Assembly: GCA_963716725.1 (NCBI GenBank)
Contig: CAVQUB010000003.1
Location: forward strand, 192,001-256,000
Length of the DNA: 64,000 nt
Source of the DNA: an uncultured delta proteobacterium
GTDB lineage: Bacteria; Myxococcota_A; Polyangia; Polyangiales; Polyangiaceae
Reading direction: 5' to 3'
Under the pieces are notes generated by a model that saw only the letters and a list, made by a program, of their open reading frames with translations, had not been told where the DNA came from and did no database searches. Of this stretch, positions 42,593-53,344 are shown in pieces. How positions within the stretch are numbered: position 1 is the stretch's first letter; every line of letters starts with the position of its first letter. Both the position numbers and the translations under genes were made by a program.

Positions 42593-44988
42593 CGACGCGC
42601 TCGTTGATTCGCGCGACGCTCCTGGACCGCGTCGCGCGCGACGAGCGCCGCTCGTCGAACTCGATCGCTGGTGCCCAGGTGCCGCCCTGCGTGGTGGGTC
42701 AAGGTCTCGAGGGCCGCGTCGGTCTTGCCGATCTCGCCCAGCGTCGCGGCGGCCAGAGCGCGCGTCTCCTCGTGGGCGCCGAGGCTCAGCAGCTTCTTGT
42801 GCCCGAGGATCTCGATGGCGATGGCCTCGGCCCGGGCCGGGGCCAGGACGGCCAAGGCGTGAAACAGCGCGCGGCGTTCCTCGATCTCGAGCCCGTCGAA
42901 GTGCGCAGATTTGAGCCGCAGCGCCACAAATGGGGCGGCGCACCGGACCTCGTGATCGGTCAGCGCGCGCAGGACGTGGATCCGTTCGATGGCCAGCCCG
43001 TCTTCGAGGCGAGCCTTGAGCTCGAGGCGAAGGGCTTCGCTCGTGGAGCCGCTCGCGCCCAGCGCCTCGATGCGAACCGCTGGGTGAGGACTCTGCGCCG
43101 CTGCTTTCAACGCTTCCAGGGAGGCAAGGGTCTCGATGCCCACGAGCAGCCGTACGACCTCGACCCCGAAGCTCGGCTCCGCTTCCCGGGCGAGCTCTCC
43201 GAGCGCGCGCTCGTGACCCGTGAGCTCCGATTCGAGGTGGTGTCGCACCTTGGCGTGCAGCGACAAATCCGAGATCTGAACCAGAGTGTTGGCGAGCACC
43301 GCAGCAAACTCGGGGCCAAGCGCCGGCAAGAGCGCCCCGAGCGCATCCAACGCGGTCGCGCTGGTCCCGTGAACACCCAGCCGCGCGAACAGCGAGCGCA
43401 CGAGCTCTGGTGGCGCGACGGCAGCCAGCACGCGCTGGCGCTCCGCCAGGAGCATGGCCGGTGGCGCACGCACCGAATCGCCGAGCTTCACCAGGAGATC
43501 CAGCGCCGCCGCGGGCCGGGAACTCGCGGCGGCCTCGAGGTGGTCACGCAGTGCGGGGCCGAAGGCGGCGAGGGTGGGGGCGAGGGCCGCGCCTTCGAGC
43601 GAATTGGAGATGACGCTCAGTAGACGGTCGGGCGACCGGGAGTCCACGGCGGCGAGCTCGTGCGCGAGGGCGCTGGTCGACTCGTCGTTCACCGCGAGCG
43701 CCGCGGTGATGACGGCAAGATCCGATTCGAAGGAGCTTTCGTCGAGCGGTGCTCCGTTGGGCGCAGCACGCCATTGTCGCAGCTCGAGGCCGGAAAACAC
43801 CTCGTCGCGCAGCGCCGCGAGCGCCGAGCCGCCCGCGAGGACCGCCAGCGGATCCAAATCGGCGGGCAGCGCGGCGCGGTGAAAGGTCCGGCGGCGGGCG
43901 CGCGGCGCGCCGCGTGGCGGGGTCGTGCTGCGGCGGGAGGGAGTGACGCCGGATGGTGGCGGGGGAGCGGACTGGCTCGCAGCTGGCGGCGGCGCGCCCG
44001 ACACGGGCTGCACGTTGCGCGCGGACGGGGACCGCGACGCCGGCATCGATGCGGGCGTCCGCTGCGGGCTCGCGGGTGGGACCGAGCTCCAGCTCGGATC
44101 GCCTTGCGGCGGTTGGGTCAGGCGCGCTGGATCCAGCATGGCGTGACTGCCCGATTCCGAGGCGAGAGCGCTCGCCAGAGGATGAGCGTACATCACCTCG
44201 CGCGTGTCGCTCGCTTGCTTCATCGCGGCGCGCAGCGTGCCCGCATCGGCAAAGCGCTGACCTGGGTCGATGGCGAGCGCGCGGTCCAACAGCTCCACCA
44301 AATCGCGCGGTGCGCGGGAGGTCACGTTCTCCAACGAGCGCACGCGCTCAGGATCGCGGAGCTCGCGCGGGCTCTGATCGGTCATCAGTGCGAAGAGGAC
44401 CGCCGCGACGCCCCACAAGTCGCCGCTGACGCTCGGCGCGCCGTGCTCCTGCTCGGGCGCCGCAAAGGCGCGATCGGCGGCCACTCCGAGCGCCACTCGA
44501 AGGCGTGCCTCACCAAAGCCGATGACGTGGACGCTGCCCCGGTCATCGAGCAGCACGTGCGAGAGCGACAGCGCGCCGTGACACACGTCGCGAGCATGGG
44601 CGGTCCCGACCAGCTCGACGAGCTCGAGGGCGATGCGCAGGGCCTCTGAAGGAGGGATCCTTCCCCGGCGTCGCTTCGCCAGCTGGCTCGCGCTCTCACC
44701 GAAGATCAGCGGCATCACCACGCCGGGAAGCGCTCCGCCGATGAAATCCACGGGGGCGACGACCTGCGGGTGGGCCACGTCGTCCGCGACCCGGAGCGAA
44801 GTCAGCATCTCCAAGGTGGGCCGGAGCTCGGGGTGAATCAGCTTGACCGCCGCGATCCCCGAAGGGTGCCCGTCGGCGACGTAGACCGCGCCCACGGCGC
44901 CGACGGCGAGCAGGCGGCTCAGCCGCAACCCGCCGTCCAGCTCGGTCCCGACTCGTGCGCGGGGACCCTCCTGATCTCGCTCCGGCAA
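42589..44988 (-). CDS. Pseudokinase + Pro-rich linker + HEAT-repeat protein
   Basis: GAVGAVY, AVK, APE, DLW are present, but HRD is replaced by HGA and DFG by GFG; C-terminal HEAT-like helices. Confidence 0.8.
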   Translation of the reverse strand: MPERDQEGPRARVGTELDGGLRLSRLLAVGAVGAVYVADGHPSGIAAVKLIHPELRPTLEMLTSLRVADDVAHPQVVAPVDFIGGALPGVVMPLIFGESASQLAKRRRGRIPPSEALRIALELVELVGTAHARDVCHGALSLSHVLLDDRGSVHVIGFGEARLRVALGVAADRAFAAPEQEHGAPSVSGDLWGVAAVLFALMTDQSPRELRDPERVRSLENVTSRAPRDLVELLDRALAIDPGQRFADAGTLRAAMKQASDTREVMYAHPLASALASESGSHAMLDPARLTQPPQGDPSWSSVPPASPQRTPASMPASRSPSARNVQPVSGAPPPAASQSAPPPPSGVTPSRRSTTPPRGAPRARRRTFHRAALPADLDPLAVLAGGSALAALRDEVFSGLELRQWRAAPNGAPLDESSFESDLAVITAALAVNDESTSALAHELAAVDSRSPDRLLSVISNSLEGAALAPTLAAFGPALRDHLEAAASSRPAAALDLLVKLGDSVRAPPAMLLAERQRVLAAVAPPELVRSLFARLGVHGTSATALDALGALLPALGPEFAAVLANTLVQISDLSLHAKVRHHLESELTGHERALGELAREAEPSFGVEVVRLLVGIETLASLEALKAAAQSPHPAVRIEALGASGSTSEALRLELKARLEDGLAIERIHVLRALTDHEVRCAAPFVALRLKSAHFDGLEIEERRALFHALAVLAPARAEAIAIEILGHKKLLSLGAHEETRALAAATLGEIGKTDAALETLTHHAGRHLGTSDRVRRAALVARDAVQERRANQRARR

Positions 44989-45012
44989 CGACAGTGCCCT
45001 CCCCCCGTCCCG

Positions 45013-46392
45013 TCAGCGCGCGCGCAGCGCCTCGGGCAAGAGCTCGAAGTACTTGGCGAAGGTCTTGATGCCGCCGGATGCCTGTCCCCAATCGAAGTAC
45101 TCGTTGGGCGCGTGGTAGCCGTGGTCCGGCAGCGAGAGGCCGACGAGCTGGATCGGACACCGAAGGTGGCGCTGCATCGTCACCACGGCCCCGATGCTGC
45201 CACCCTCTCGAACGAACGCCGGCGACTTGCCGAAACCGAAGCGGAGGGCCCGACTCGCGACCTCCGTGAGCCGCCCCGCAGCGTTGCCACGAAACGGAGC
45301 CAGCGCGCTCTGTCGCTCGACGACCACGTCGGGGTTCAGACGCTTCACCTCGGCCTTCAACAGCTCGAAGGCTTTGGCTGGGGTTTGGTTCGGGACGAGC
45401 CGCAAGCTCACCTTGGCTTCGGCAAAGGGCGGCACGATGGTCTTGATGCCTCGCCCTTGGTAGCCGCCAGCGATGCCGTGCACCTCGAAAGAGGGCCGGG
45501 TCCAGATGGCCTGCATCACTTCGAGCGCGTCTGAAGATCGCAGCGAACGCAGACCGTAGACCTTCTTGAACCGGGACACCGAGAAGCCTGCGCGCGCGAA
45601 GGACTCGAGCTCCGCCCGAGTGGGCTTCACGACGTCGTCGTAGAAGCCCTTGATGCGGATCTTGCCTGTGCCTCCATCGTGGAGCGCGGCGATGACGTTC
45701 GCCAGCTCGACCATGGGGTTGCGTGCCGCGCCGCCCGTCAGGCCCGAATGCACGTCCTGCGTCCCGGTCTCGAGGCGCAGCGTCGCGCCCTGCAACCCGC
45801 GCAGTCCCGTGGACACGACCGGCTTGCCAGGGGCGAGCCAGACCGTGTCGGACACCACGACCAGATCCGTGCGCAGGGACTTGGCGTGTTGCTTCATGAA
45901 GCCCTCGAAGTTCGGGCTCCCGATCTCTTCTTCGAGCTCCCAAATGAACTGGATATTGAGGGGTACGCCGGCGTTTCGCGCGAACGCCGCGGCGTGCAGC
46001 ACCGCCAACGCCGGCCCCTTGTCGTCCGTCGCGCCACGCGCGTAGTAGCGGTCGCCCTCGATGGACATGCGAAAGGGCTCACGCTCCCAGGCGTCTCCGT
46101 CAGCGGGTTGCACGTCGAGATGGTTGTAAATGCTCACCGTGGGCTGCTTGCGGTCACTCACGAACCGGCCCACGACCACTGGGTTGCCACGTGTCTTCAG
46201 GATCTCGGCGCTGCCGCCCAGCCTGACCACCGCCTTGGCCGCGGCTTCGGCGCCTCGCGCGATGTCAGGGCGATGCTCGGGGGCAAGGCTGATGCTCGGG
46301 ATCTCGACCCACCGGCGCAGCTCTGACTCGTATTTCGATCGCACGCCGCGCACGTAAATGTCGAGCGCCTTCGGATCGATGCCGACAACCAT
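45013..46392 (-). CDS. M20 family dipeptidase/deacylase
   Basis: YNHLDVQP, ARGATDDKG, EEEIGS, DVHSG, HAPNE. Confidence 0.93.
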   Translation of the reverse strand: MVVGIDPKALDIYVRGVRSKYESELRRWVEIPSISLAPEHRPDIARGAEAAAKAVVRLGGSAEILKTRGNPVVVGRFVSDRKQPTVSIYNHLDVQPADGDAWEREPFRMSIEGDRYYARGATDDKGPALAVLHAAAFARNAGVPLNIQFIWELEEEIGSPNFEGFMKQHAKSLRTDLVVVSDTVWLAPGKPVVSTGLRGLQGATLRLETGTQDVHSGLTGGAARNPMVELANVIAALHDGGTGKIRIKGFYDDVVKPTRAELESFARAGFSVSRFKKVYGLRSLRSSDALEVMQAIWTRPSFEVHGIAGGYQGRGIKTIVPPFAEAKVSLRLVPNQTPAKAFELLKAEVKRLNPDVVVERQSALAPFRGNAAGRLTEVASRALRFGFGKSPAFVREGGSIGAVVTMQRHLRCPIQLVGLSLPDHGYHAPNEYFDWGQASGGIKTFAKYFELLPEALRAR

Positions 46393-46496
46393 GCGGCGCA
46401 TCCTAGCAGGTCGGTCTCGAGTTCCGCGCGCAGATTGATCGCCTCGGATCGCCGGACGCGACACGTCGATCCGCTGACCGACGCCCTGGTTGCCGC

Positions 46497-47516
46497 TCAG
46501 GGGCAGTGCCACTTCAAGCCGCTGCCGTCATAGCGACAGCGACAGTACGAATTTGCGTACGGACACAGCGCTTGGCTGTCGCTACAGGCGCTCTCGGCAG
46601 CCGGCTTCGCTGTCGGGCAGGTCAGGCAACTCCAGTTGGTGGTCGTGCCGCCGCACCCGCAGGCGTTGTTGCCGTAGTTGCAGGTGTCATCGTAGCCGTT
46701 GCAGTTGGCTCCGTCGTTCGGCTCGCTCTGCGGGCACGGGTTGCAGTGCCAGGTCCCACCCCAGCAAGTGCACTGGTTGTTGCTGTACTTGCAGATCGTC
46801 CCAGGAGCGCTGCACGACGAGTTGTTCTGCGGCGCAGCGGGCGAACACGCGCTGGTCGTTCCACCGCTGCCACCCGCGCCGCCGCTGCCGCCCGCGCCGC
46901 CGGTCGTTCCACCGCTGCCGCCGGTCGTTCCTCCGCTGCCGCCGGTCGTTCCACCGCTGCCGCCGGTCGTTCCACCGCTGCCGCCGGTCGTGCCTCCGCT
47001 GCCGCCGGTCGTTCCACCGCTGCCACCGGTCGTTCCACCGCTGCCACCGGTCGTGCCGCCGCTGCCGCCCGCGCCGCCACTGCCGCCCGCGCCGCCCGCG
47101 CCGCCACTGCCGCCCGCGCCGCCACTGCCGCCCGCGCCGCCGCTGCCGCCCGCGCCGCCGGTCGTTCCACCGCTGCCGCCGGTCGTTCCACCGCTGCCGC
47201 CGGTCGTTCCACCGCTGCCGCCGGTCGCGCCGCCGCTGCCGCCGGTCGTGCCACCGCTGCCGCCGGTCGTTCCACCGCTGCCGCCGGTCGTGCCACCGCT
47301 GCCGCCGGTCGTGCCACCGCTGCCGGCAGACCCGCCCGTCGCTCCGCCGGAGCCACCGGTGTTCCCGGAACCGCCAGCGCCACCCGTGGCGCCGCCGCTT
47401 CCCCCGGTGTTCGAACTGCCTCCAGTTCCGAACTGGAACTCTTCGTAGTCGTTCGAACAGGCAACGGCCAGCGCGACGGTCGCGCTGACAACCCAAAGCG
47501 TGCGACGTCGGATCAT
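46497..47516 (-). CDS. Lipoprotein with long Gly/Ser/Thr spacer and three C-terminal Cys-rich modules
   Basis: Lipobox AVAC; GGTTGGS repeats; three C..P....C......C.Y....C.C..W.C modules. Confidence 0.85.
   Translation of the reverse strand: MIRRRTLWVVSATVALAVACSNDYEEFQFGTGGSSNTGGSGGATGGAGGSGNTGGSGGATGGSAGSGGTTGGSGGTTGGSGGTTGGSGGTTGGSGGATGGSGGTTGGSGGTTGGSGGTTGGAGGSGGAGGSGGAGGSGGAGGAGGSGGAGGSGGTTGGSGGTTGGSGGTTGGSGGTTGGSGGTTGGSGGTTGGSGGTTGGSGGTTGGAGGSGGAGGSGGTTSACSPAAPQNNSSCSAPGTICKYSNNQCTCWGGTWHCNPCPQSEPNDGANCNGYDDTCNYGNNACGCGGTTTNWSCLTCPTAKPAAESACSDSQALCPYANSYCRCRYDGSGLKWHCP
46855..47330 (-). repeat. Coding tandem repeats: 21-bp (GGTTGGS) and 18-bp (GGAGGS) units
   Basis: Two blocks of about 8 units of CCGCCGGTCGTTCCACCGCTG-like sequence separated by 18-bp units. 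Confidence 0.9.
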
Positions 47517-47595
47517 GGTCGAACCTTGGATCAGATTCGCACGCCGCGCGCCAAAGTGCCAGCTACGTCCGCTCGCACCTCGGAGCACACGGTCG

Positions 47596-49488
47596 CTATT
47601 TCTTCTTCATGGTGGGGGGCGGGAGGGGATCCGGCGGCGGCGGCGGCGGCGGTCTGAAGCCGGTGTTCGTGGTGGTCGGCGGCGGAGGTGGATCCATGGG
47701 CGGCACCAGATCCGGCGGTGGCTGCGCGAACTCCGACGCATCCGGCTTGGGCTGGATCTCGAGGGCCTGACCCGCGTCTGCCAGGACGGGCGGGCCTTCG
47801 TGCTGCTCGCGCATGTGGGGCGGCGGCAGCGGATCGGGCGGCGGCGGCGCCAGCGGATCACAGGCCAAGGGAGTGAGCGCGATGGCAGCTGCGGCGGCCG
47901 CGCCCCAGCGCGGAACCGCGCGGGTCCTGGCCACGCCATGCACCGCACTCGAGATGGCGTGACTCACCTCGGCGACGCGGGCTCCAAGGGAGCGGTTCGC
48001 GCGCTCGACCTCCTCGAAGACAATGCCCGAGAAATCGTCGAAGGCCGCGGCATCGAGCGACGGCGGCGACTCGGCAAAATCGACGATCTCGTTCATGCGC
48101 GCCACCGAGTCCAGGTTCACCTGCCGGATGGTTTCGATCGTGCGAGCATGGAGCGTCGAGGTCCGCGCCTTCGGATAAAACTGCCGCAGCAAGTGCCAGT
48201 AGTAGCCGAGCGACAGGTTGCTGTTCATCAGCCCGTCGCAACGGAAGTTCCGATCGAGGAAGGTCCTCGCGAAAATGCGAAAGGCGCGCTCCGCCGCTGG
48301 GTCGCTGATCTCGTAGTCCCACCCGAAGACGTCGCCCACCAGCCGCTGCTCGCGCGCGAGCTTCTGGTGGAGCGGCGTGCCCGGGTAGATCTCGGTTCGG
48401 CAGAAGTTCATCGGCACGTCGGCGTTGCGCTTCAAGAAGGCGAGGCTCTCGCGCAGCGACCGAATGCGGGTCTCCGGATCGAAGATCAGCATGTTGAAGC
48501 AGGCGTAGACGTCGATCTCGCGCAAGAAATCCAGGGCGCGTTGGTTCTGCGCGATGTCCACGCCGCGCCCGAGAGTCTTGAGCCCCTGGGTGCTGCCGGC
48601 CTCGATCCCGATGTACATGCGCAGCAGCCCGATCTCCCGCAGCACGCGGAACACCTCGGTGTCGAGATCGTCGGGACGGGCTTTGAGCACCAAGGCGACG
48701 TCGTTCACACCACGCCGCCGGAATGCGTCGCGCAAGCTCGTGACGCGCGCCAGGTCGCGGACGGCGTTGCGGGTGAAGAAGTCGTCATCGTGAAACACGA
48801 GCATTCGTGCGCCGCGCTCGCTACGCACCGCGGCGACCTCGTCAGCGACGTTGTCTGCGCTGCGCGAGCGGTAGCGCTCTCCCCCTGCGTCGGCGATGTA
48901 GGCGTGGATGCAGCAGAAGGTGCAGTGGCCATAGCAGCCTCGGGTACCCACCAAGAACGCCGCAGGGATGCCCATGTGCAGCTGCGGCTCCCCGGTACGC
49001 ACCGGGAAGTGAATCGCGTCGAGGTCCGATGCCAGCGGCCGAGGCGGGGCTGCGTAGATGCTGCCATCCGGCCGGCGCTGCACCAGACCGGCCACGTCGT
49101 CCAGTGACGCACCGAGCCGCTCGCACAACTCGACCAGGGTCGACTCGCCCTCGTGTCGCACGACGCTGTCGATGCTGGGAAAGCGCTCCAGCACCTCGCG
49201 ATAGGCAAAGGTGGGGAAGTGCCCGCCAACCGTCAGGTGTCCCGAAAAGCCTCCGTCGCGCAGGCTTCCCGCGAGCTGCCCAAACTCCTCGGCACGCCGC
49301 TGAAACGTCATCGACAAGCCGATCACGTCAGGCTCGAAGCGACGCGCGGCCTCGTGCACCGTCGCCGTGTCCGCCGGCGATGAGAAGGGCGCCAGCTCGC
49401 TGCGATGCCCGGCCGCATCGAGCGCCGACGCGAGGTAACGAATCGCCAGGTTCTCCTCCAACTCCGACCCCACGAGCAGCACTTTCAT
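47596..49488 (-). CDS. Cobalamin-dependent radical SAM protein with fused signal-like, Pro-rich DPxPPP tail
   Basis: B12-binding N-domain (ENLAIRYLAS, IGLS, VGGHFP), TRGCYGHCTFC (CxxxCxxC), DDDF, GIEAG, IYPGTP. Confidence 0.92.
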   Translation of the reverse strand: MKVLLVGSELEENLAIRYLASALDAAGHRSELAPFSSPADTATVHEAARRFEPDVIGLSMTFQRRAEEFGQLAGSLRDGGFSGHLTVGGHFPTFAYREVLERFPSIDSVVRHEGESTLVELCERLGASLDDVAGLVQRRPDGSIYAAPPRPLASDLDAIHFPVRTGEPQLHMGIPAAFLVGTRGCYGHCTFCCIHAYIADAGGERYRSRSADNVADEVAAVRSERGARMLVFHDDDFFTRNAVRDLARVTSLRDAFRRRGVNDVALVLKARPDDLDTEVFRVLREIGLLRMYIGIEAGSTQGLKTLGRGVDIAQNQRALDFLREIDVYACFNMLIFDPETRIRSLRESLAFLKRNADVPMNFCRTEIYPGTPLHQKLAREQRLVGDVFGWDYEISDPAAERAFRIFARTFLDRNFRCDGLMNSNLSLGYYWHLLRQFYPKARTSTLHARTIETIRQVNLDSVARMNEIVDFAESPPSLDAAAFDDFSGIVFEEVERANRSLGARVAEVSHAISSAVHGVARTRAVPRWGAAAAAAIALTPLACDPLAPPPPDPLPPPHMREQHEGPPVLADAGQALEIQPKPDASEFAQPPPDLVPPMDPPPPPTTTNTGFRPPPPPPPDPLPPPTMKKK

Positions 49489-49600
49489 GCGCGACCTCCC
49501 AGGCGGTGAGTCTGCCAGACTTCAATCGATCTGGAGGTCCAATAATGCGGTGGCGCCGGAGACGCGCTCGACCCACGCGGGCCTGTGCTATTTTGCGCTG

Positions 49601-50830
49601 ATGCGCGGTCGATTTCTGGGTGTTGCTCTGTTCACGCTGTCGAGCCTGGCGAGCGCCTACGACGAGAACCACGTGTTCATCACCAATCGCGGTGGCAACA
49701 ACGTGCTCGAGCTCGACGAGAACCTGACCTACGTCAAGAGCTGGTTCGACGGGGCGGCCCTCAGCGTGCCCAACGGCATGGCCTTCGATCCTCTCGACCG
49801 CCTCTACTTGGCCGACACGGGCAACGACCGCATCGTCGTGTTCGACGACAAGGGCGCCGTCGTCACGACCTGGGGCACGAAGACGCTCTTGGCGCCGCAG
49901 GTCGAGAGCTTGAACTTCAACGCGGCGGGCAGGTTGTTCGCCAGCGCCAACCCAGGCAACGGCACGGTCGCAAGCTGGAAGAACGACGGCAGCGACCAGA
50001 AGGTGTTTGTCAGCGACTCGTCCTACCTGAGCCTGGGCAACGTGAACTTCAGCATGGGCGGCAACGTGCTGCTCGCGGACTTCTCGGGCTCCCGCGGCGT
50101 GCGCGAGCTGAACCCAACGACCGGCGCGCTCATCACCGAGTTCGGACAGGGCACGAGCAAACACGAAGACATGGTCGTCGACGCCGACGACAACGTCTTC
50201 GTCTCGGCGTTCACCCAGAACAAGATCCTGAAGTTCGACGCCACGCGAAAGCAGGTGGGAACCTATTCTCCTCCGGGTTTGGTTCAGCCCACTGGCATCG
50301 TCTTGACCGCCGGCTGCAAGCTGCTCGTGGCCTCGTTTGGCACCCACGAGATCTTCGAGCTCGACTATGACGGCACCTTCATCAAGAAGTTCACGGTTCC
50401 CGGCTTGTCGCTGCCCGAGAGCTTGGTGATCGCGAAGCTCTCGGTGGCCGGATCGATTTCCCTCGGCAAGGCCGTGCCGGACTGCGAGGGGCCCGACGGC
50501 GGCAGCGGTGGCGCGAGCGGCGGCGCCGGCGGCAGCGCGGGCAGCGGTGGCGCGAGCGGCGGCGCCGGCGGCACCGCGGGCGGCGGCGGGGCGGCCGGCA
50601 GCGGCGGCGCCAGCTCGGGGGGAAGCGCCGGCAAGGGCGGCGGCTCCGCGGCGACGGGTGGCGCGGCGAGCGGCGGCGCTCCGGCGAAGGGCGCCACGAC
50701 CTCCGACGACGATGGCGGCTGCGGCTGTCGCGCGGCCCGATCAGATCCGCGTTCGAGCCTCGCCAGCGCCTTGATGCTGCTCGGGGTGGCGCTCTTGCGC
50801 CGGAAGCGCTCGCGTCTCGACGCCGAGTAA
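49601..50830 (+). CDS. NHL-repeat beta-propeller with MYXO-CTERM sorting signal
   Basis: Signal peptide; P.GMAFD...LYLADTGNDRI; Gly linker; GGCGCR-TM-RRKR tail. Confidence 0.9.
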   Translation: MRGRFLGVALFTLSSLASAYDENHVFITNRGGNNVLELDENLTYVKSWFDGAALSVPNGMAFDPLDRLYLADTGNDRIVVFDDKGAVVTTWGTKTLLAPQVESLNFNAAGRLFASANPGNGTVASWKNDGSDQKVFVSDSSYLSLGNVNFSMGGNVLLADFSGSRGVRELNPTTGALITEFGQGTSKHEDMVVDADDNVFVSAFTQNKILKFDATRKQVGTYSPPGLVQPTGIVLTAGCKLLVASFGTHEIFELDYDGTFIKKFTVPGLSLPESLVIAKLSVAGSISLGKAVPDCEGPDGGSGGASGGAGGSAGSGGASGGAGGTAGGGGAAGSGGASSGGSAGKGGGSAATGGAASGGAPAKGATTSDDDGGCGCRAARSDPRSSLASALMLLGVALLRRKRSRLDAE

Positions 50831-50851
50831 AAGTCGCGCGAGGCTCGGCGC

Positions 50852-53344
50852 ATGCTTCAAGGCCTGCGTTGGCTGACGGCGCTTCCGCTCGCATTCGTGA
50901 CGATCGGCTGCGACGACGAACATCTCGAACGTGGCCCGCTCCTGGTGTCCGATGGCGCCAGCGTGCAGGTTCGGCTCTCGCCCTTCGGGCTCGAGATCCG
51001 AGATGCGGACCAGCGGCCCGTGCTGGAGACCACTCGCGGCAGCCGCGACGATGGCTACGGGGGTCCCGGCGTCACGGTGGACAGCCCCGACTTCGTCTCC
51101 CAGGTGTTGCCGGGCTGGGACGGCTACCGTGCCAATGAAGCACCTTGGCACAGCGGGCTGGTGGCCACGGTGCGCGAGGCGGACCAGACGTCGGTGGTGC
51201 TGGATCTCGATGGCGACGGCACACATATGGTGTTTCGCGTGCAGGTCGAGGCGTCCCGCGTGCGGCTGTCCCTCGGCGCCGGCGCCAGCGCGGGCGGCTC
51301 CGACGCGCTGAACAAGACCACTCTTGGATTTCGCTCTCACCCCGACGAGAGCTTCTTCGGGATGGGTGAGCGCTTCGGCGAGGTCGATCATCGGGGCTGG
51401 CCCATCTACAGCTACGCCGAAGAAGGGGCCCTGGGCAGAGGCGAGAACACACCCATTGGCGAGGAAAACCCCTTTCCGAACGGGCCGAGCATGACCTATT
51501 TCCCGGTCCCCTTCTTCATGTCGAGCCGCGGCTACGCCGTGCACGCCGACACGACCTACCGCAGCGAGGTGCACTTCACCTCCGAGCGCGAAGACGCCTG
51601 GCGCCTCGCCGTCAACGCCGATCACTTCGACGCGACGGTGTACGTCAACGCCGATCCACTGCTGAGCCTCGATCAGTACACGGAGGACACGGGGCGGCCG
51701 CCCGTGCCCGCGCAGTGGGTGTTCGGACCCCGACGCCGCGTGGGTTCGAATTCGATGGTCGACGGTGTGCCCGAGTGGAAGCTGATGCGCGACCGCGACG
51801 TGCCCTGCACCGGCGTGGACGACTCCGTGCATTTTCTGCCCGCGCTCTCCCACAAGGGCCGTGAAGCGGAGCTCTCCGCCTGGACCTCTGCCGCCCACGC
51901 CGCGGGCTACAAGGTCATGGCGTACAACAACCCCTACGTCGCCTCGAACCACGACAACGCGCTCGACGACTACGCCTACGGCAAACAGCAGGGCTTCTTC
52001 GTCAAAGGGCCCGACGGCCAGCCGACGCTCACCGAGTTCATCTCGGGACAGCTGCTCGAAGTCGCGGCCATCGATCTGACGAACCCCGCCGCCGACGCCT
52101 GGTTCCAGAGCCTGCTGAAGCGCACGCTCGATCTCGGCTACGACGGCTGGATGCACGACTTCGGCGAGTACACGCCGCGCGACGCGGTGTTCCACGACGG
52201 GCGGCGCGGGGACGAGGTGCATGACGAGTATCCCGTGCTGTCGGCCAAGTCGGCCCACGATCTGTTGGAGCGCGAACGACCGGGCGACTACCTCTTCTTC
52301 GTGCGATCGGGCTACAGCGGAACCCAGCGTTGGGTTCCCGCGGTGTGGGGCGGCGACGCCGAAGCAAACTTCGACGAGAGCCAAGGTTTGCCGTCAACGC
52401 TGCGCGCCGGCATCAGCCTGTCGATGAGCGGCGTGCCCTATTGGGGCAGCGACATGACGGGCTTCAAATGCCTGACCGCAGCGCCCCGTGACAAAGAGGT
52501 CTTCTTGCGCTGGGTCGAGTTCGGCGCGGTTTCACCGATCATGATGGAACAGAACGCCTGCTCGAACCCCCTCGGCAAGCAGACCAAGTGGTCGCTCTGG
52601 AAGGACGACGAAACCGTCGAGGTCTACTCGCGCTACGCGCGGCTACACACTCGCCTGCAACCGTACTTTCTCACGCTGGCGCGCGAGGCAAACGCCAGCG
52701 GTCGCCCGCTCTCGCTGCACCCGTTTCTGATCTTTCCCGAGTCGCCTGCGGCCCGCGCCGTCGACGATGCGTACTATCTCGGGCCCGCGCTCTACACGTC
52801 GCCGGTGGTGCGGCGGGGGCAGCTCGACAAGAAGACCTGGCTACCCCCGGGACGCTTCGTGCACTTCGACACTTACGAGCTCTTCGCCGGCGACCAAGTC
52901 GTCAGCATCGCCGCGCCCCTCGGCCGGCTCCCGCTCCTGCTCGTCGAAAACCAAATCCTCCCGCTGCTCGACCCCAGCATCGACACCTTGGTGCCCGCAA
53001 CCGACGCTGACGTGGTCAGCCTCGACGATGTCGCCGATCGCCTCGACGTGAAGGTCGTGCTCGGCGCGAGCGGGCAGGCGCGGCTCGAGCTCGCAGACGG
53101 CACGGTGCTGGAGGCGGTGCGTGCCAGCCAAGACGCGGGCAACCCCGACGCCCTGGCCAAGGTCACCGACAGTGAAATTGCGAATTGCACGGCCTGCTTC
53201 ATCGACGACCAGAAGGGCGATACGAAGCGAGTGCGCGTGACCACCGCGTTGGCGTCGGGCTCGGACCTGCGTTGGGGCGATCTGCGGCTGGTGGTCAGCG
53301 GCGGTCCGGCGCGCCGAGTGCGCTGGGAAGTGCTGCGGCTCTGA
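50852..53344 (+). CDS. Glycoside hydrolase family 31 lipoprotein
   Basis: Lipobox TIGC; FFGMGE, PVPFFMSS, TGRPP.P.W, IDLTNP, WMHDFGE, WGGD, GSDMTGF. Confidence 0.92.
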   Translation: MLQGLRWLTALPLAFVTIGCDDEHLERGPLLVSDGASVQVRLSPFGLEIRDADQRPVLETTRGSRDDGYGGPGVTVDSPDFVSQVLPGWDGYRANEAPWHSGLVATVREADQTSVVLDLDGDGTHMVFRVQVEASRVRLSLGAGASAGGSDALNKTTLGFRSHPDESFFGMGERFGEVDHRGWPIYSYAEEGALGRGENTPIGEENPFPNGPSMTYFPVPFFMSSRGYAVHADTTYRSEVHFTSEREDAWRLAVNADHFDATVYVNADPLLSLDQYTEDTGRPPVPAQWVFGPRRRVGSNSMVDGVPEWKLMRDRDVPCTGVDDSVHFLPALSHKGREAELSAWTSAAHAAGYKVMAYNNPYVASNHDNALDDYAYGKQQGFFVKGPDGQPTLTEFISGQLLEVAAIDLTNPAADAWFQSLLKRTLDLGYDGWMHDFGEYTPRDAVFHDGRRGDEVHDEYPVLSAKSAHDLLERERPGDYLFFVRSGYSGTQRWVPAVWGGDAEANFDESQGLPSTLRAGISLSMSGVPYWGSDMTGFKCLTAAPRDKEVFLRWVEFGAVSPIMMEQNACSNPLGKQTKWSLWKDDETVEVYSRYARLHTRLQPYFLTLAREANASGRPLSLHPFLIFPESPAARAVDDAYYLGPALYTSPVVRRGQLDKKTWLPPGRFVHFDTYELFAGDQVVSIAAPLGRLPLLLVENQILPLLDPSIDTLVPATDADVVSLDDVADRLDVKVVLGASGQARLELADGTVLEAVRASQDAGNPDALAKVTDSEIANCTACFIDDQKGDTKRVRVTTALASGSDLRWGDLRLVVSGGPARRVRWEVLRL

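Follow-up and report, generated by a model that had tools for sequence, protein, structure and literature searches.

A class B radical SAM enzyme of a myxobacterium fused in frame to a signal-like segment and a conserved proline-rich motif tail

The locus and its fused gene

The window analysed here is a 64,000-nucleotide stretch of the genome of an uncultured delta proteobacterium (assembly GCA_963716725.1, contig CAVQUB010000003.1, positions 192,001 to 256,000 of the forward strand), and this report concerns one open reading frame (ORF) within it, at 47596..49488 on the minus strand. The ORF begins with ATG, encodes 630 amino acids plus a stop codon and lies in a region of 63-74% G+C. Its product joins a class B, that is cobalamin-dependent, radical S-adenosylmethionine (SAM) core to a signal-like segment and a Pro-rich tail. 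This organization had been proposed from the DNA letters and their translations alone: a B12-binding and CxxxCxxC radical SAM body of about 520 residues that runs on in the same frame into a signal-like segment and a tail. Translation and Pfam confirmed it.

The B12-binding domain occupies residues 12-121 (49126..49455, minus strand; Pfam PF02310 at 67.4 bits, above its cutoff of 32.1, with E 1.3e-18) and the Radical SAM domain residues 181-341 (48466..48948, minus strand; PF04055, E 3.3e-16). The latter contains the cluster motif CxxxCxxC as C185/C189/C192 (48913-48936, minus strand), and all three cysteines are invariant in both alignments used here (A1, 65 sequences; A2, 66 sequences). An AlphaFold2 model based on an alignment of 65 relatives reached a predicted local distance difference test score (pLDDT) above 90 over residues 1-520, including the helices of a family-specific C-terminal region of the enzyme, residues 397-519 (47932..48300, minus strand). 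When the model was compared with the PDB by Foldseek, the best matches were the cobalamin radical SAM enzymes OxsB (E 6e-24), MgmA (8e-20), TsrM (2e-19), CysS and TokK, so that the class B assignment rests on fold as well as on the two Pfam domains. No curated NCBIfam family of B12 radical SAM proteins reached its cutoff: the top score was that of BchE (105.5 against 481 bits), followed by lower scores for ApyD (85.5 against 750) and MJ_0865 (63 against 360), and HpnR and HpnJ likewise stayed below their cutoffs. Because domains and fold match class B and no curated NCBIfam family claims the protein, its sequence identifies the enzyme as a class B radical SAM protein from an uncharacterised branch. 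At E up to 1e-70 the family was present in 26 of the 251 genomes sampled from the phylum.

Contigs assembled from public runs of three studies bridged the junction between enzyme and tail in frame. Those of two studies spanned 47671-48354 and 47740-48612 with zero differences, and the contig of the third, about 95% alike, covered 47400-49600 with a 3-nt insertion as its single listed indel. Whole-genome searches returned full-length matches lacking internal stops in eight genomes, the window assembly and seven relatives. Among 5.8 billion proteins, 295 matched at E up to 1e-10, and the best 120 of them were 559-712 amino acids long; no stop separated enzyme from tail in any full-length homologue seen. 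The contigs and the full-length matches thus show the fusion intact across a junction at which a stop or an indel had been considered, and on these sequence data it is real and conserved.

Downstream of the long C-terminal helix the same frame reads RTRAVPRW, GAAAAAAIALTPLA, Cys543 and then DPLAPPPPDPLPPP ... EFAQPPPDLVPPMDPPPPP ... PPPPPPPDPLPPPTMKKK, the translation as a whole ending in ...HGVARTRAVPRWGAAAAAAIALTPLAC-DPLAPPPPDPLPPP-HMREQ...-EFAQPPPDLVPPMDPPPPP-TTTNTGFR-PPPPPPPDPLPPP-TMKKK. The basic stretch RTRAVPRW (residues 521-528; 47905..47928, minus strand) resembles a signal-peptide n-region. The apolar segment GAAAAAAIALTPLA with Cys543 (residues 529-543; 47860..47904, minus strand) is a candidate internal signal peptide or signal anchor. 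Its apolar stretch before Cys543 is Ala-rich and about 15 residues long, and in the window clade the uncharged run ahead of the Cys is mostly 15-19 residues. In 66 orthologues P540 never varies, and C543, W528, A533, A534, A537, L538 and L541 each reach at least 90% conservation. A basic stretch followed by about 15 apolar residues agrees with the n- and h-regions of a signal peptidase II (SPII) signal, for which an uncharged h-region of about 7-22 residues is expected; the location of the segment, at residues 521-543 of 630, is not the N-terminal one of such signals.

Tail motifs across the enzyme family

The tail that follows Cys543 comprises 87 Pro-rich residues with three to four copies of PPDP[L/P]PPP. 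Measured as column identity to the window protein, it alternates between conserved and variable parts. The first motif block, DPLAPPPPDPLPPP (residues 544-557; 47818..47859, minus strand), scored 0.79 and the last, PPPPPPPDPLPPPT (residues 613-626; 47611..47652, minus strand), which ends four residues from the C-terminus, scored 0.82, compared with a mean of 0.70 for the enzyme core. Between them lie variable spacer 1 (residues 558-585; 47734..47817, minus strand), at 0.19, and a middle block, EFAQPPPDLVPPMDPPPPP (residues 586-604; 47677..47733, minus strand), at 0.59, in which P591, P600 and P602 are at least 90% conserved; the other spacer scored 0.17. The original prediction had asked whether DPxPPP repeats are kept while spacers vary, and these values answer that they are. 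P550, P551, D552, P553, P555 and P557 of the first block and D620, P621, P623 and P625 of the last are invariant in the 66 orthologues, and among eight orthologues the codons of the first block differ synonymously. These alignments show strong purifying selection on the tail motifs.

Of the 120 best homologues, 116 carry the strict motif P[PM]DP[LPVIA]PxP two or more times, usually in three or four copies, and 116 have an apolar segment followed by Cys. As to the four exceptions in motif count, P0025 and P0027 look truncated or frame-shifted, and P0085 and P0097 carry looser variants of the motif. In 80 of the 118 motif-bearing homologues the chain ends 3-5 residues after the last motif. In a six-frame scan of the 7.9-Mb assembly the window ORF was the only one of at least 80 amino acids with two or more copies of PPDP[LPVIM]PxP. 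A sister clade with about 50% identity in the enzyme also has DPLPPP repeats, there behind a canonical LGAAAC. The window tail itself had no Pfam match at E up to 1 and no NCBIfam match.

To place this layout in its family we searched 1.84 billion representatives of clusters at 50% identity and obtained 1010 with E up to 1e-30, a set that mixes fused and split forms, and examined the best 150. Lipoboxes were scored by a strict PROSITE-style rule, [LVI][ASTVI][GAS]C. Among the 95 representatives of at least 600 residues, 51 matched this rule somewhere beyond residue 440, the median position of the Cys being 551; residues 30-440 contained a match in only four of the 95, though that stretch is longer. 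Summed over the 51 lipobox-bearing proteins, positions -30 to -15 relative to the Cys (16 residues) contain 181 R/K against 45 D/E, and the 16 residues that follow the Cys contain 67 R/K against 118 D/E. Such a distribution of charge along the sequence is the pattern of an N-in/C-out export signal. Tail lengths ranged from 60 to about 490 residues. Pfam found domains in three of 35 long tails: CarboxypepD_reg with TonB_C in one and a glucuronyl esterase in another, both exported-type, and ankyrin repeats in the third. The ankyrin repeats, in the 909-residue representative P0187, replace the Pro-rich tail and are an odd partner for an exported segment.

What the tails have in common is a short acidic-Pro motif, whose type differs by clade: PPDP[LP]PPP in the window clade, VVDPPPPD-type repeats, as many as 11 in tandem, in a second, and (TH)xxEMAPP shortly after the Cys in a third. 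At one locus GVAEAAPPPIDE is present twice. The tail of another family member, L050 (G180:C4), has 11 head-to-tail copies of the 10-residue unit [WM][VI]VDP[PLA]P[PQIV]D[AV] between its lipobox Cys and a C-terminal domain. A generalised motif, [DE][PMYAV][LPAVIM][PA]xP, occurred 0.68 times per 100 residues in tails against 0.045 in enzyme cores, a 15-fold difference, and was found in 36 of the 51 lipobox-bearing tails. A FastTree phylogeny of 147 enzyme cores (137 representatives and 10 orthologues; 12 representatives under 470 residues were left out) was divided at its midpoint such that 37 of 38 EMxP tails fell on one side and all 10 DPxPPP and all six hhDPxPxD tails on the other. The motif labels require three changes on this tree, the minimum for four states. 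Since related sequences share labels, the tree shows clade-specific motifs and not co-evolution as such.

Several family members depart from the fused layout. 'Short' members make up 55 of the 150 representatives, a number that is only an upper bound on true tail-less forms, because P0121, first taken as a tail-less sister of the window clade, is cut by a contig end and was rejected in that role. In a clade that lacks the hydrophobic segment (L023, L036, L038, L047 and L048) the radical SAM ORFs end in a conserved G-x-G-x-PLT[DE]-x-G-D-x-[VT]-ATPLQ, and those of L035 and L041 end in PWAAETxRLG; such ends may represent comparable tails in the cytoplasm, or else belong to the fold. In L012 (G034:C9:72302-74218), a member that is 39% identical, the match passes through three TGA codons; this may be a broken gene or a case of selenocysteine or recoding.

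Three paralogues of the enzyme, on contigs C12, C15 and C9, were found in the genome of the window. The first (G000 C12:72770-75004, minus strand) continues with LGAAGC, then HPTEMVAIP, a weakly TonB_C-like domain (tonB_Cterm, 21.1 bits and so below the cutoff of 27.1) and RPEMAPRPP twice at its end. The second (G000 C15:317557-319201, minus strand) holds a frameshift or an assembly error, since its matches fall in two overlapping frames, covering query residues 1-347 and 343-540. Its tail consists of LGATGC, repeats of the forms VADPLPGD, VVDALPDD and VADPPPAD, and a C-terminal domain of about 100 residues that is common to L021, L022, L024, L050 and L052.

The third paralogue, on C9, has no tail. 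Directly upstream, about 11 bp apart, lies a lipoprotein gene whose product contains SSGDECTVCKTIAEMAPTPILPD, with a motif region of the form ..SSGDxCxxCxxIAEMAPxPI. The pair of lipoprotein and tail-less enzyme, in the same order, was found in all seven genomes inspected for this paralogue. The lipoprotein family has an N-terminal signal peptide with a Cys, and [IV]AEMAPxP preceded by WVSSGDxCxxC was kept in 40 of 42 homologues that were 33-95% identical. In the roughly 7055 likely coding ORFs of the window genome (1.97 million residues) EM[AV]PxP occurred six times, three of them in these radical-SAM-linked proteins; the chance expectation for one protein of such length is 0.001. Neither the C15 tail nor the split lipoprotein had a match in Pfam or NCBIfam. 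A word-based search of 5.8 billion proteins, with 37 candidates scored, found no free-standing tail for the DPLPPP clade of the window among proteins of 58-186 residues. The expectation that split versions exist was therefore borne out in a paralogous clade, as an AEMAPxP lipoprotein beside a tail-less enzyme in 7/7 genomes, and not in the window clade, for which no split DPLPPP lipoprotein was seen.

No gene neighbour was conserved around the window orthologues at the seven loci compared; a downstream lipoprotein, an M20 peptidase and a kinase recurred at two of the seven, another locus being truncated on the downstream side. In the window the gene directly downstream (46497-47588, minus strand) encodes a lipoprotein (MIRRRTLWVVSATVALAVAC...) in which GGSGGTT/GGAGGSG repeats form a long array and the C-terminal part is rich in Cys. 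It has no Pfam or NCBIfam match and no acidic-Pro motif, and its repeats create long ORFs in several other frames. The divergent gene (49487-50830, plus strand) encodes an NHL/SGL beta-propeller protein that has a MYXO-CTERM sorting tail as well as a Gly/Ser-rich linker. The sorting tail, which scored 20.1 bits where the cutoff is 20, marks the organism as a myxobacterium. Rfam gave no match in 44000-53000, cobalamin riboswitch included, and no sigma-70-like or terminator-like sites were found in 46400-49900.

Candidate roles of the tail

Enzyme and exported motif-bearing protein are linked by fusion in most clades and by adjacency in one, and the motif type tracks the enzyme clade; an enzyme-substrate relation is the simplest reason for both. 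We therefore consider the chances about even that the motif-bearing, exported tail is the enzyme's own substrate, carried on the same chain. This reading of the tail, already that of the original prediction, is supported in part: both comparative tests came out in its favour, and the internal start that had been offered as the alternative gained nothing.

On this substrate reading, the enzyme would act on the acidic-Pro motifs while they are still cytoplasmic, either in cis or on another molecule. Going by enzyme class, the modification would most likely be C-methylation of an unactivated carbon in or beside the motif; a non-methylase reaction, as in OxsB, is possible. The apolar segment would then insert N-in/C-out and the tail be threaded across the inner membrane. 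Cys543 may be lipidated, perhaps with a diacylglyceryl group, and the chain cut by SPII; a modified polyproline lipopeptide would then come free and the enzyme would remain as a tail-anchored protein. We hold the complete scheme more tentatively than the substrate relation itself: a bacterial polyprotein in which Sec, Lgt and LspA act on an internal lipoprotein signal, some 520 residues from the start, so that a C-methylated polyproline lipopeptide is cut off its own enzyme, seems to us possible but rather doubtful.

A number of observations weigh against taking the tail as a lipidated substrate. The box of the window protein is PLAC, with Pro at -3, and fails the strict lipobox rule, which only six of 114 window-clade members pass; the earlier description of the segment as 'lipobox-like' holds loosely and not under that rule. 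The Pfam scan of the protein detected no RiPP recognition element, RiPPs being peptides that are made by the ribosome and modified after translation. OxsB, the top structural match, is not a methylase, so that class B does not always mean methylase. AlphaFold2 monomer models gave the tail a pLDDT under 50, apart from values of about 51-60 at the last motif, and showed no sign of docking. Elsewhere in the family, 32 of the 35 long tails scanned had no Pfam domain, and the generalised motif was missing from 15 of the 51 lipobox-bearing tails. A suspected homology linking the C-terminal domain of the split lipoprotein to those of the fused tails found no support: BLASTP was not significant and hhalign gave a probability of 7%. 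A tail placed behind an export signal would be exposed to the cytoplasm only briefly, and radical SAM catalysis is slow. Alternatively, the motif could serve as a ligand for some partner in the periplasm. The lipobox result has to be read alongside the split lipoprotein family, in which the same rule passes the N-terminal signal in 16 of 42 members and fails in 26, many of these with Pro at -3 or -2; because only 16 of these 42 genuine signals pass, the rule undercalls in this lineage.

The main rival explanation, which we regard as a serious though less probable one, is that the tail is not a substrate. The apolar segment would be a type II signal anchor tethering the cytoplasmic enzyme to the inner membrane, the enzyme would act on a lipid or another molecule, and the tail would be a rigid, TonB-like spacer or ligand in the periplasm, its motifs binding a partner there or in the outer membrane. 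A Pro-rich spacer is a feature of TonB itself, TonB_C exceeded the Pfam cutoff in the tail of one distant representative (41.3 against 24.6 bits), and the weak tonB_Cterm score of the C12 tail points the same way. So do the best NCBIfam matches, among them two lipid enzymes, HpnR and HpnJ, together with a ladderane-type lipid radical SAM protein, all far under their cutoffs, as well as the atypical box of the window clade and the lack of docking in the AlphaFold2 models. The window tail, however, has no TonB_C. The split form consists of a soluble, tail-less enzyme and an exported lipoprotein, a pairing kept in 7/7 genomes; as no physical tether is possible there, an anchor with a spacer does not explain it. 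Motifs repeated 3-11 times, with free spacers and clade-specific types, fit recognition by an enzyme better than a spacer. Finally, for a stable transmembrane helix the Ala-rich apolar run, at about 15 residues, is on the short side and low in hydrophobicity.

It is improbable, in our estimate, that the tail stays in the cytoplasm as a substrate or regulator that is never exported, the apolar segment serving as a peripheral or re-entrant membrane anchor or as an oligomer interface. Such an arrangement would remove the kinetic conflict between export and modification and would suit the atypical lipobox of the window clade. Against it stand the charge distribution around the Cys, which is that of exported proteins, the canonical lipoboxes of paralogues, the exported-type domains in some tails, and the split partner with its N-terminal signal peptide and Cys.

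Still less credible is an internal start, by which the tail would be made as a separate small lipoprotein and the full-length fusion would be incidental. The in-frame GTG that had been anticipated at about 47930-47945 does exist, at 47932-47934 (V519) and at 47941-47943 (V516), where the C-terminal helical region ends, and a GTG ahead of the basic stretch recurs at five of seven orthologue loci, with an ATG at a sixth. But GTG is a common Val codon at this G+C content, and it is not conserved: L018, one of eight orthologues compared, lacks ATG, GTG and TTG alike in the 30 codons shown ahead of its apolar segment. Met is not enriched ahead of the hydrophobic segment (10 of 51 observed, about 13 expected), and no promoter-like site was found. 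The uninterrupted frame of the full-length homologues and the failure of the word-based search, with its 37 scored candidates, to find a free-standing tail-like protein of 58-186 residues argue in the same direction, and we consider the proposal of separate translation unsupported. Pro-rich ORFs arise easily at 70% G+C, but the agreement of contigs from three studies, the same layout in more than 100 homologues from separate assemblies and the invariance of motif residues rule out, as far as sequence data go, an assembly or frameshift artefact, and leave meaningless read-through with a negligible probability.

Were the tail indeed a substrate exported in this way, the gene would represent the first RiPP-lipoprotein of the radical SAM class and the first fusion of enzyme and substrate joined through an export signal, in which a cobalamin radical SAM enzyme carries a multi-copy substrate behind an internal export signal. 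The orphan class B branch would gain a peptide substrate motif, [D/E]-x-x-P-x-P, and the whole myxobacterial enzyme family would reuse the same logic with clade-specific acidic-Pro motifs. Both enzyme-precursor fusions and RiPPs of the lipoprotein pathway would be extended to a new enzyme class and gene design, and bacterial cell biology would have a natural test case for the processing of an internal lipoprotein signal.

Comparison with known systems

Our literature search found no description of a B12 radical SAM enzyme fused to a lipoprotein or to a Pro-rich tail. Several known systems share single elements of the arrangement. In borosins of the OphMA type, enzyme and core peptide are on one polypeptide with the substrate C-terminal. 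The enzyme there is a SAM-dependent, Rossmann-class alpha-N-methyltransferase, the proteins are fungal or bacterial and cytosolic, and no export signal is known to separate enzyme from core. Fusion as such is thus all that is shared: the window enzyme is a radical SAM protein and not a borosin methyltransferase.

The chemistry proposed here has its closest counterparts among class B radical SAM enzymes that modify proteins or peptides, such as Mmp10, PoyB/C, the bottromycin methylases and ApyD. Enzymes of this kind, MgmA included, C-methylate unactivated carbons in polypeptides. MgmA, the glutamine C-methylase of MCR (methyl-coenzyme M reductase; PDB 9ccb), also matches in fold (Foldseek E 8e-20, TMt 0.72). 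The window protein differs in being far under the cutoff of every curated family, and to our knowledge none of MgmA, Mmp10, PoyB/C, the bottromycin methylases and ApyD is fused to a substrate or an export signal. The CUAEP/CCAEP-tail radical SAM (seleno)protein family NF040546 is alike in being named for a short conserved motif in the C-terminal tail of the enzyme. It differs in that motif and in having no hydrophobic export segment with a Cys, and the window protein scored 29.1 bits against its cutoff of 500.

Two further systems bear on the order of modification, export and cleavage. Anaerobic sulfatase-maturating enzymes (anSME), which are cytoplasmic radical SAM proteins, modify a short motif in exported proteins before their export; they are of the SPASM type, not B12-dependent and unfused. 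The cytochrome b/c1 polyprotein FbcH of Bradyrhizobium is processed at an internal signal sequence, where it is cut by signal peptidase I; unlike the protein proposed here, it joins two respiratory subunits and not an enzyme and its substrate.

The nearest parallel is with the DAG-RiPPs, which are described in PMC13056109 as RiPP-lipoprotein hybrids made by MNIO enzymes, for example DybH/DybA and NedBC/NedA. Their precursors have SPII signals and are first modified in the cytoplasm by the MNIO and then lipidated and cleaved (PMC13056109); its authors consider the modification fast enough to compete with export (PMC13056109). The proposed system would be alike in that a cytoplasmic enzyme acts on a short conserved motif, that the signal of the precursor is of the lipoprotein type with a conserved Cys, and that the product enters the Lgt/LspA/Lnt pathway (PMC13056109). 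Precursors over 30 kDa also occur among DAG-RiPPs as described there (PMC13056109), and the split pair found here, a lipoprotein gene followed by an enzyme gene, has the same layout. As in those systems, a motif-bearing candidate precursor with an SPII-type signal is here genetically tied to a putative cytoplasmic modifying enzyme, by fusion or, in the paralogue, by adjacency.

The differences lie in enzyme class, gene design and motif. DAG-RiPPs employ an MNIO where the window gene encodes a cobalamin radical SAM enzyme, and their motifs are CPxCGxG or EGKCG where the present ones are acidic-Pro (PMC13056109). Precursor and enzyme are separate genes in the DAG-RiPP systems, whereas here the signal lies about 520 residues inside the enzyme chain. 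The terms 'radical SAM', 'cobalamin' and 'fused' do not occur in the main text of PMC13056109. By analogy, the window gene is best read as a fused, radical-SAM version or analogue of the MNIO-based DAG-RiPP system.

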